Shown: positions 22,881 through 25,903 of the stretch, piece by piece
Layout of the letters: each line of letters begins with the position of its first letter
Numbering within the stretch: position 1 is the first letter of the stretch
Assembly (NCBI GenBank): GCA_037443265.1
Contig: JBBIOR010000008.1
Span: 47,196-73,098 of the forward strand
Reading direction: 5' to 3'
From: Candidatus Fraserbacteria bacterium
GTDB taxonomy: Bacteria; Bipolaricaulota; Bipolaricaulia; RBG-16-55-9
DNA: 25,903 nt
Position numbers and translations under genes: made by a program
Notes under the pieces: generated by a model
What the model was told of the DNA's origin: nothing
The model's input: the letters and a program-made list of their open reading frames with translations, nothing else
Databases searched by the model: none

Positions 22881-22909
22881 TTGACAGCCTCTAGTGAGCG
22901 TGTTATACT
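22881..22909 (+). promoter_or_regulatory. Strong sigma70 rRNA promoter TTGACA-N17-TATACT with extended -10 and GC-rich discriminator
   Basis: TTGACA 22881-22886, TG 22901-22902, TATACT 22904-22909, followed by AGCGGGCTGCC. Confidence 0.85.
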
Positions 22910-22991: not shown

Positions 22992-25032
<2,041 letters not shown>

Positions 25033-25702
25033 GGTTCGGCTACCGAACGGCCGTTATAAAATCCGGCTATATGCTGGAACAGCTCGCTGTATCCCATGCT
25101 ACCGAGGAGGTGAGAACGCATGGGTGGAGCCAATCAGCAGGAAAGGCTCTCGATGGCCGAAGCGAAGAAGTGGTTCCTTGCAGGATTCATCGAGGGGGAA
25201 GGCAGCCTTTGCGTCTCGATCAAAGAACATCCGACGAGCAAGTTTGGTTACCTTGTTGATCCGGAGTTCTTCCTGTATCAGCACAGGAGTGGCATCAAAT
25301 TGCTCGAGATGGCCAAAGAGCTCTTTGGCACTGGGCGTATCGCGCCAAAGTCGGGCAGCGAAGGCGTTCTAGTCTTCTCCATCGTGAGTCGCCGCAGTCT
25401 TAAAGAGAGGGTGATCCCTTTCTTTGAAAAGTACATGATCTTCTCCACGAAGCGCGATGTGTTTGAGCGCTTCAAGGAGATCGTAGAGGCCATGGAAGAA
25501 CGCAAGGAGCACTTAACCCCTGAGGGGCTGGCACGCATCGTCGAGAAGGCGTATGCGCTGAACCCGGCCAGCAAGGGGAAGGAGCGCAAAAGAACGCTCC
25601 AGGAGGTAGTCGAGAGAATCCTCAGAGGCCGTACGCCGGACACCCCCAGCCGGGGTGAAGATATGGCCCGATCTTCGCGGCGACGCGAAGCCAACAAGAA
25701 TG
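25033..25702 (+). mobile_element. Group I intron (IB-like) at 23S position L1923, 670 nt
   Basis: Splits AACTATAACGGT|CCTAAGGTAGCGA. P1: exon TATAACGGT pairs IGS GCCGTTATA (25050-58) with U.G at the splice site. P3 TCCGGC 25062-67/GCCGGA 25635-40; P4 TGCTGG/TCAGCA; P6a CTCTCGA/TCGAGAG; P7 G(A)GGCCG/TGGCCC; P8 CACCCC/GGGGTG; P9 CTTCGCG-GCGA-CGCGAAG region; terminal G 25702. Confidence 0.96.
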
Positions 25703-25707
25703 CCTAA
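25120..25707 (+). CDS. Single-motif LAGLIDADG homing endonuclease, I-CeuI-like
   Basis: FLAGFIEGEGSL motif, then TSKFG..VDPEF...QH, TGRI..KSGS and VIPF as I recall from I-CeuI; SD GAGGAGGTGA 25104-13. Alternative ATG at 25153. Confidence 0.92.
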   Translation: MGGANQQERLSMAEAKKWFLAGFIEGEGSLCVSIKEHPTSKFGYLVDPEFFLYQHRSGIKLLEMAKELFGTGRIAPKSGSEGVLVFSIVSRRSLKERVIPFFEKYMIFSTKRDVFERFKEIVEAMEERKEHLTPEGLARIVEKAYALNPASKGKERKRTLQEVVERILRGRTPDTPSRGEDMARSSRRREANKNA

Positions 25708-25903
25708 GGTAGCGAAGTTCCTAGTCGGGTAAGTTCCGACGCGCATGAATGGTATAACGACTTGGGCGCTGTCTTAACGAGAGGCTCGGCGAAATTGAAG
25801 CGTCGGTGAAAACGCCGACGACCCGCGGCAGGACGGAAAGACCCCGTGGAGCTTTACTGGAGCTTGGCATTGGGTCTTGGTGGCCGCTGTGTAGGATAGG
25901 TGG
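25703..25903 (+). rRNA. rrl: 23S rRNA, 3' exon (partial, runs off the window)
   Basis: CCTAAGGTAGCGAA...GTCGGGTAAGTTCCGAC...GACGGAAAGACCCCGTGGAGCTTTACT. Confidence 0.97.

Follow-up and report, generated by a model that had tools for sequence, protein, structure and literature searches.

Near the end of a contig from a Bipolaricaulota-type metagenome-assembled genome (MAG), the 23S rRNA gene is split by an insertion that carries its own open reading frame (ORF). The question is whether this insertion is an intact and mobile group I intron, and how its protein relates to the homing endonuclease I-CeuI. The window, meaning the whole stretch of DNA analyzed, covers 25,903 nucleotides of contig JBBIOR010000008.1 (assembly GCA_037443265.1), and the MAG comprises 1.69 Mb in 44 contigs with 88% completeness. 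We interpret the insertion as a group I intron with a homing endonuclease gene of the I-CeuI lineage, lying after U1923 of the 23S rRNA gene, that would splice and would spread by homing. We give this reading a probability of about 0.86, with splicing and homing judged from anatomy and homology. The main features of the locus are as follows.

22993 to 25032, plus strand: 23S rRNA exon 1, the 5′ part of the gene to U1923 (Rfam LSU_rRNA_bacteria; numbering via Escherichia coli)
25033 to 25702, plus strand: group I intron of 670 nt, no P2, ending in omega-G (G25702) (sequence, Rfam alignment, comparison)
25120 to 25707, plus strand: putative homing endonuclease gene, 195 aa, with one LAGLIDADG motif (LAGFIEGEG, residues 20–28) (Pfam, PDB search, Foldseek)
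25703 to 25903, plus strand: 23S rRNA exon 2, from C1924, truncated by the contig end (Rfam)
25705 to 25707, plus strand: stop codon TAA of the endonuclease ORF, within exon 2

Insertion site and ribozyme core

The Rfam LSU_rRNA_bacteria model matched positions 22993–25903 with 1696.8 bits, so that the 5′ two-thirds of the gene closes the window and the host gene is a bacterial 23S, as had been read from the sequence. Both flanks were aligned to bacterial LSU rRNA, with a 675-nt gap between them. The junctions read ...CTATAACGGT (to 25032) / GGTTCGG...AAGAATG (to 25702) / CCTAAGGTAGCGA (from 25703), and the interval 25033–25702 given in the sequence-only reading is thus the exact intron. The uninterrupted 23-mer was located at 2203 in the E. 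coli 23S locus (L048, gene start 290), which makes its T position 1923 and places the intron between U1923 and C1924. The assignment to L1923 made in the sequence-only reading is now computed on an annotated E. coli 23S and holds. Another near-match to CTATAACGGT, around 19504, lies in coding DNA and was dismissed as chance. We take L1923 to be the I-CeuI target and the site of the Chlamydomonas chloroplast L1923 intron, which reportedly encodes I-CeuI. The I-CeuI target has long been in use for cutting bacterial rrn operons, and L1923 falls within the region of helix 69, at the subunit interface.

About 85 nt ahead of the point where the 23S gene begins, a near-consensus promoter was identified at 22881–22909; its hexamers TTGACA and TATACT are spaced by 17 nt, and the second is preceded by TG. 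The 16S gene was located on another contig (C19:4853–6407). From this arrangement, the 23S gene appears to be unlinked from the 16S gene and transcribed from a promoter of its own. Past the intron, 201 nt of the contig remain, no other 23S piece was identified in the assembly, and the gene lacks its 3′ third; further introns downstream, for example at L2593, may lie in that absent part.

The secondary structure was drawn by eye on the window sequence and scored on an alignment of 26 homologous introns, the window's among those counted. Its elements are listed below.

25024 to 25058, plus strand: P1, the 5′ exon (25024–25032) with the internal guide (25050–25058), and the U25032.G25050 wobble at the splice site (sequence, alignment)
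25034 to 25039 with 25043 to 25048, plus strand: P1 loop extension hairpin, read from the sequence with no alignment count
25062 to 25067, plus strand: P3 5′ strand, pairing with 25635–25640 and forming a pseudoknot with P7 (alignment)
25072 to 25077, plus strand: P4 5′ strand, pairing with 25134–25139 inside the ORF, at the codons for N-Q-Q (alignment)
25082 to 25130, plus strand: P5 and its extension, P5 being 25082–25085 with 25127–25130
25093 to 25099 with 25118 to 25124, plus strand: P5a, with the ATG in its 3′ strand (alignment)
25100 to 25103 with 25109 to 25112, plus strand: P5b, with the GGAGG Shine-Dalgarno sequence (25106–25110) in its loop and 3′ strand (alignment)
25140 to 25621, plus strand: P6, 25140–25142 with 25619–25621, the ORF body in its loop (alignment)
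25625 to 25669, plus strand: P7, 25625 and 25627–25633 with 25662–25669, A25626 bulged (alignment; Rfam R and S consensus)
25635 to 25640, plus strand: P3′, followed by P8 (25641–25646 with 25652–25657) and J8/7 (AAGA), all enclosed by P7
25673 to 25690, plus strand: P9 hairpin, 25673–25679 with 25684–25690, with a GCGA (GNRA-type) loop (alignment)

Across the 26 introns, standard pairs occupied 95.6% of 1555 cells, and 29 of the 60 pairs had changes on both sides. Shuffles reached the observed value in 0 of 500 trials on 4 of 5 measures and in 35 of 500 on the fifth (further pair types). When partner columns were slid by 1–3 positions, pairing fell to 35–47%, a control that is flattered by drawing the structure on a counted sequence, whereas the compensatory changes are independent of that. 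The covariation was carried by P3 (100% of cells paired, 4 of 6 pairs changed on both sides), P5, P5a, P7 (96.2% paired, 3 of 8 pairs compensatory), P8 (6 of 6 compensatory), and P9 (6 of 7 compensatory, 96.7% paired). Compensatory pairs numbered 4 of 4 in P5, 5 of 7 in P5a, and 1 of 4 in P5b, with 93–99% of cells paired in these helices. P4 was 100% paired, with 5 of its 6 pairs never varying and therefore uninformative for or against, and P6 was paired in 26 of 26 introns and invariant, with no covariation either way. In P1, the U.G pair at the 5′ splice site was present in all 26 introns and the inner 5 pairs in 25–26 of 26. The last intron base was G in 24 and A in 2 of the aligned introns, and P10 in the window copy, read from the sequence, has at most 1 bp. 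Compensatory change in the core helices argues for selection for a working ribozyme, and the complete group I core (P1, P3–P9, no P2) proposed in the sequence-only reading is borne out by covariation over the 26 introns.

An Infernal group I model, suggested earlier as a check, agreed in extent but not in score. The match to Rfam Intron_gpI (RF00028) spanned the full model (1–253) and the whole insertion, with the ORF as one long insertion, but reached 16.9 bits (E 0.11) against a gathering cut-off of 50. This fits a long ORF inserted into the model, yet it is still a shortfall. The intron of locus L024 scored 29.7 bits (E 1.4e-5) against the same model, and an ORF-less relative in metagenome locus L060 scored 58.2 bits, above the gathering score; the latter has the same GGA/UCC P6 helix, closed over a short hairpin. 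Rfam's placement of the ORF in the P5 loop was rejected in favor of the P6 loop, where both comparison and the ORF-less relative locate it. We also discarded a placement of the P4 3′ strand at 25568–25573 (CCAGCA), which varies without compensation in the alignment; the true partner is the invariant AATCAGCAGG at 25132–25141. Judged on sequence and comparison, the insertion is a genuine, well-formed group I intron.

In the mechanism that we propose, the pre-rRNA would fold into P1 and P3–P9, an external guanosine would attack at the U25032.G25050 pair, and the omega-G (G25702) would then dock in P7, leading to exon ligation and an intact helix 69/71 region. An endonuclease homodimer, by homology with I-CeuI, would cut the intron-less TAACTATAACGGT/CCTAAGGTAGCGA site, and repair from an intron-bearing copy would spread the intron.

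The endonuclease and its overlap with the ribozyme

The ORF product matched Pfam LAGLIDADG_1 (PF00961) with E 2.2e-17 and 64.2 bits against a cut-off of 23.1. Within the motif, residues G22, E25, G26, E27, and G28 were invariant in 26 relatives, and the metal-binding residue of LAGFIEGEG is assigned here by analogy, as an assumption of ours. In a PDB sequence search, the summed score was led by two-domain enzymes, while the best single stretch was I-CeuI (2ex5), scoring 104.3 bits with the single protein as query (next best single domain, 73.6) and 126.2 bits in one stretch with a profile of 26 family members (next best domain, 86.8). An AlphaFold (AF2) model built from the family alignment had a pLDDT of 84.6 and a pTM of 0.76, and together with Foldseek it predicted the alpha-beta-beta-alpha-beta-beta-alpha fold of solved LAGLIDADG enzymes. 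Foldseek returned 128 PDB chains at E ≤ 0.001, and among the matches listed, ranks 1–50 were all LAGLIDADG enzymes. Rank 1 was I-CeuI, with 40% identity over 158 columns and a TMq of 0.72, followed in identity by I-Vdi141I (35%), I-TnaI (34%, rank 3), and enzymes of the I-CreI type (about 20%). I-CeuI is thus the closest solved relative, both by Foldseek rank and by score per domain, in agreement with the resemblance noted in the sequence-only reading. The resemblance had been thought to run along the whole protein; alignment, model, and Foldseek support it for residues of about 8–160 but not for the tail, residues 175–195, which is an unconserved read-through with pLDDT below 50. On per-domain scores and Foldseek, the protein probably belongs to the I-CeuI lineage, and by analogy with I-CeuI it should act as a homodimer. 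A search of the full protein library returned 2795 representatives at E ≤ 0.001, and matches in the protein atlas fell in generic "homing endonuclease" clusters only. Protein P0205 was considered as a stand-in for I-CeuI and rejected, with I-CeuI missing from its PDB matches at E ≤ 1e-20.

Coding and ribozyme sequences interlock: the ORF begins within the P5 extension, has its body in the P6 loop, and continues through the 3′ strand of P6, P7, and the 3′ strand of P3. Codons 5–9 (N-Q-Q-E-R) form the 3′ strand of P4 and a strand of P6, and codons of about 166–174 (RILRGRTPD) form P6′, J6/7, P7, and P3′, with a conserved C-terminus of RILRG-x-TPD. Identity at the first, second, and third codon positions was 0.77/0.82/0.51 in the P6-loop part, a pattern that, read from the alignment, is that of a protein under purifying selection. 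In the 5′ overlap with the core the values were 0.93/0.84/0.95, where third positions are, by the same reading, frozen by the RNA; they were 0.91/0.89/0.86 in the 3′ overlap and 0.75/0.70/0.71 from P8 to the 3′ splice site, the last without coding signal. With the Shine-Dalgarno sequence and ATG in the P5 extension and codons in core strands, translation and folding should compete.

The ORF stop was located in P8 or the 3′ strand of P7 in 23 of 26 introns and in P9 in L009. The window intron and that of L004 have no in-intron stop, and the ORF crosses the 3′ splice site to the TAA in exon 2. A different P8 loop length in the window copy would have put the frame off register with the usual stop, and the extra 17–20 residues are best read, from the alignment, as a lineage-specific read-through. 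The excised window intron would accordingly carry no stop codon, and the absent in-intron stop could lower expression of the enzyme.

Distribution, mobility, and host

A protein-guided scan limited to 1 genome for each species yielded 35 loci; of these, 28 (L002–L029) encode a protein 51–87% identical to the window's. We identified an insertion of 668–721 nt at the same site in 26 of these 28 genome loci, which places the insertion far beyond chance; of the other 2, L003 has its L1923 intron behind a second intron, and L027 has its intron at L1931. The record titles of the 26 L1923 loci bear the labels of about 16 phyla. All 26 had intact ORFs, a count biased by gathering the loci via the protein. 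A word-indexed protein search returned 931 relatives at E ≤ 0.001, the best 120 of which were all at least 61% identical, and the window element is one among hundreds of near relatives in public bacterial assemblies. Among metagenome contigs, both L1923 exon motifs were present in 19 of the 51 loci examined (of 80 returned), with a gene 35–72% identical to the window's, and all 6 metagenome loci tested had bacterial LSU flanks by Rfam, namely 5 of those 19 (4 of them 35–45% identical) and L060. Because of these loci with both exon motifs and bacterial LSU flanks, bacterial L1923 introns are common and diverse. Closer to the host, copies of 65–86% identity were identified in 4 of 40 relatives, all from other families of the same order, while the 8 genomes of the same family had a copy in none and the exact empty site in 5. 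Most relative MAGs had neither form, probably reflecting a 23S gene that was not assembled.

Several relatives carried more than one element or an unusual record. In the Bipolaricaulota relative G028 (L003:660–1420, also recovered as L041), endonuclease-bearing introns at L1917 and L1923 flank an exon of 6 nt (AACGGT). The final base of the L1917 intron is A instead of G, and a full P1 of the L1923 intron is possible only once the L1917 intron is spliced out. L008 and L019 (about 2100–2800 in each) have a second endonuclease-bearing intron at L1951 beside the L1923 one, and G001 and G020 (L044 and L043) have the L1951 intron alone with the L1923 site empty. Introns at L1931 were located at L027:1351–2118 and L060:1050–1822, with the 5′ exon ...CCTAAGGT and the 3′ exon AGCGAAATTCC; their endonucleases are 51% and 59% identical to the L1923 family, respectively, and they have the same core motifs. 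The ORF-less group I intron at L060:758–983, of about 226 nt, has a guide that fits L1917 and a 5′ flank unlike 23S, where another insertion may lie upstream. L005 (labeled "bacterium") and L006 ("archaeon") have equal intron lengths and the same printed intron ends and are probably one organism, binned twice or mislabeled. Genome G029 has 3 contigs (C22, C39, and C45, corresponding to L039, which is L029, and to L046 and L047) with endonuclease copies 84%, 65%, and 66% identical, 2 of these contigs being shorter than 900 nt, which suggests that this MAG is contaminated or mixes strains.

In a tree of the endonucleases built without I-CeuI and L060, the L1931 enzyme of L027 joined 25 L1923 enzymes in one clade with 100/99 support, apart from the L1931 enzyme of L045, 4 L1951 enzymes, and 1 L1917 enzyme. 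The two L1931 introns, with L027 in this clade though without a firm place inside it, suggest movement between sites 8 bp apart. The tree mixes phyla, grouping Pirellulaceae with Nitrospirota (98/93) and Bacteroidota with Acidobacteriota (99/96), and Anaerolineae were placed in 2 starred clades. The patchy distribution, the empty sites, and this mixing of phyla support mobility of the intron. Intron and exon identity between hosts tracked each other across 253 pairs, with a median difference of −5 points and the intron more alike than the exons in 21 pairs, and this comparison, in a sample picked by intact protein, gave no sign of recent transfer.

Temperature can be estimated from the IVYWREL fraction of a proteome by formula. 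The fraction here, taken over 993 unfiltered ORFs of 250 aa or longer from a genome with 59% G+C, was 0.434, giving an index of about 72 °C, and the host is probably heat-loving, with the index being only a hint. Among public reads, 70% of the window words sampled were present in one subsurface DNA run, which may represent the source sample, and 6–7% in RNA runs from hot springs and mats. At a likeness threshold of 88%, one 1421-nt RNA contig spanned a relative's intron at about 90% identity. Exon–exon forms were present in RNA contigs and are indistinguishable from intron-less rRNA of other organisms. In runs X2, X17, and X19 (one of unknown kind and two RNA), the 5′ core was joined to P6′, skipping the ORF body at 25149–25614; these joints resemble an ORF-less form, with matching sides of 19–25 letters, and are only a lead.

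Alternative readings and known systems

The ribozyme could be intact while the protein is no longer, or no longer mainly, a homing endonuclease, serving as a maturase that steadies the intron fold at high temperature or decaying in the window copy. A Thermotoga neapolitana 23S intron protein with maturase-like activity at high temperature is described in the part of PMC3984707 used here, and I-TnaI stands at Foldseek rank 3. The parallel divergence of intron and host rRNA is what long vertical persistence would give, and the usual in-intron stop is gone from the window copy. Set against this are the invariant residues of the metal-binding motif, the codon-position pattern of purifying selection in the ORF body, and a patchy occurrence among relatives in which empty sites exist. 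The change in the tail falls after the conserved domain, which speaks against decay, and a maturase role would be compatible with cleavage, so that we consider such a loss of the homing function unlikely.

Failure to splice is another possibility, with the insertion kept in the mature 23S or removed without ligation, like an RNase III intervening sequence, to give a fragmented 23S. A reference cited for the Simkania L1931 intron is titled "An unspliced group I intron in 23S rRNA" (known to us by its title), and intervening sequences are common in bacterial 23S according to the sections drawn on from PMC11270868. Nevertheless, the core helices have been kept by compensatory change across phyla, P4 and P6 being invariant, and the U.G pair and omega-G are conserved. 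In addition, a 670-nt insert or a break in the helix 69 region should do harm, and we regard this explanation as very unlikely. Less probable still is an artefact of assembly or binning, in which the 23S fragment with the intron would belong to another organism. Misassembly of rRNA genes is frequent in MAGs, the contig stops soon after the intron with the 3′ third of the 23S absent, and in the relative G029 three contigs each carry a different copy. On the other hand, the 23S piece runs on unbroken into over 70 kb of its contig, G+C content agrees (flank 0.596, exons 0.610, genome 0.591), the closest introns belong to the same GTDB order, and contigs of a DNA run span the intron without error.

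A wider interpretation, which we put forward tentatively and think doubtful as a whole, is that a large bacterial L1923/L1931 intron–endonuclease lineage, seemingly undescribed in print, corresponds to the chloroplast I-CeuI element and may even be its reservoir. Interleaving of gene and ribozyme at both ends might then act as a splicing–translation switch, as folding for splicing and unfolding for translation, being mutually exclusive, would give a built-in switch. The enzyme could be a thermostable I-CeuI isoschizomer, and one specificity might move introns between L1923 and L1931, 8 bp apart. Apart from this wider reading, the I-CeuI target is naturally occupied by a related intron in many bacterial phyla, and I-CeuI relatives, some probably derived from thermophiles, are possible thermostable rare cutters or engineering scaffolds. 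The overlap of coding sequence and catalytic RNA offers a clean system for dual constraint and for competition between translation and splicing. The window intron leaves the known workings of such elements unchanged.

No bacterial L1923 group I intron was named in the open-access texts searched, and the review by Hausner (2014) does not mention 1923. The Chlamydomonas L1923 intron and I-CeuI (PDB 2ex5) share with the window the site, the target, and a single-motif LAGLIDADG enzyme, but their host is a chloroplast and not, as here, a bacterium, and identity is only 40%, with I-Vdi141I (35%) and I-TnaI (34%) not far below. By alignment offsets, I-CeuI has about 35–45 additional N-terminal residues relative to the window protein.

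Bacterial 23S introns are placed at L1917, L1931, L1951, and L2593 in Table 1 of Haugen et al. 2007 (PMC1995217), the part of that work used for this comparison. Those of Thermotoga, Synechococcus C9/C1, Simkania, and Coxiella resemble the window intron in lacking P2, in having a complex P5, and in a length of about 650–775 nt, with single-motif LAGLIDADG ORFs of 143–189 aa that run, like the window's, from a peripheral loop through P7, P3, and P8. An overlap of ORF and core of the same kind is known there for bacterial L1917 introns, and the L1917, L1931, and L1951 introns of the relatives analyzed here share core motifs with the window intron. In contrast, L1923 lies outside the 4 positions of Table 1, and the window ORF begins upstream of P6, in the P5 extension, reading through the 3′ strands of P5 and P4 and through P6.

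In the Candidate Phyla Radiation (CPR), 23S insertions are named at 1917, 1931, 1952, 2593, 2604, and 2657 in the passages drawn on from Tsurumaki et al. 2024 (PMC11270868), and these are also group-I-like with single-domain LAGLIDADG_1 proteins, one of which, I-ShaI, cuts its own site. Unlike those insertions, the window intron lies at 1923, which is not among the positions named, and its host is not a CPR bacterium. On the parts of these sources consulted, L1923 would join L1917, L1931, L1951, and L2593, together with the CPR positions 1952, 2604, and 2657, as a site of bacterial 23S introns. A 2025 paper on the cultured WOR-3 thermophile sy37 (PMC12285271) mentions that its 23S has an intron, as yet unconfirmed, that carries a homing endonuclease. 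The closest precedent for the position is archaeal, as the accessible portion of Nawrocki, Jones, and Eddy 2018 (PMC6125680) describes 9 archaeal IB4 introns at LSU/1923, the position of the window intron. There, the IB4 introns at LSU/1923 and LSU/1931 occur with or without endonuclease genes and several are about 680–760 nt long; their hosts are archaeal, whereas the window flanks score as bacterial LSU. On that portion of the source, the intron type and its site are already known in archaea, and the occurrence of L1923 in bacteria is the addition.
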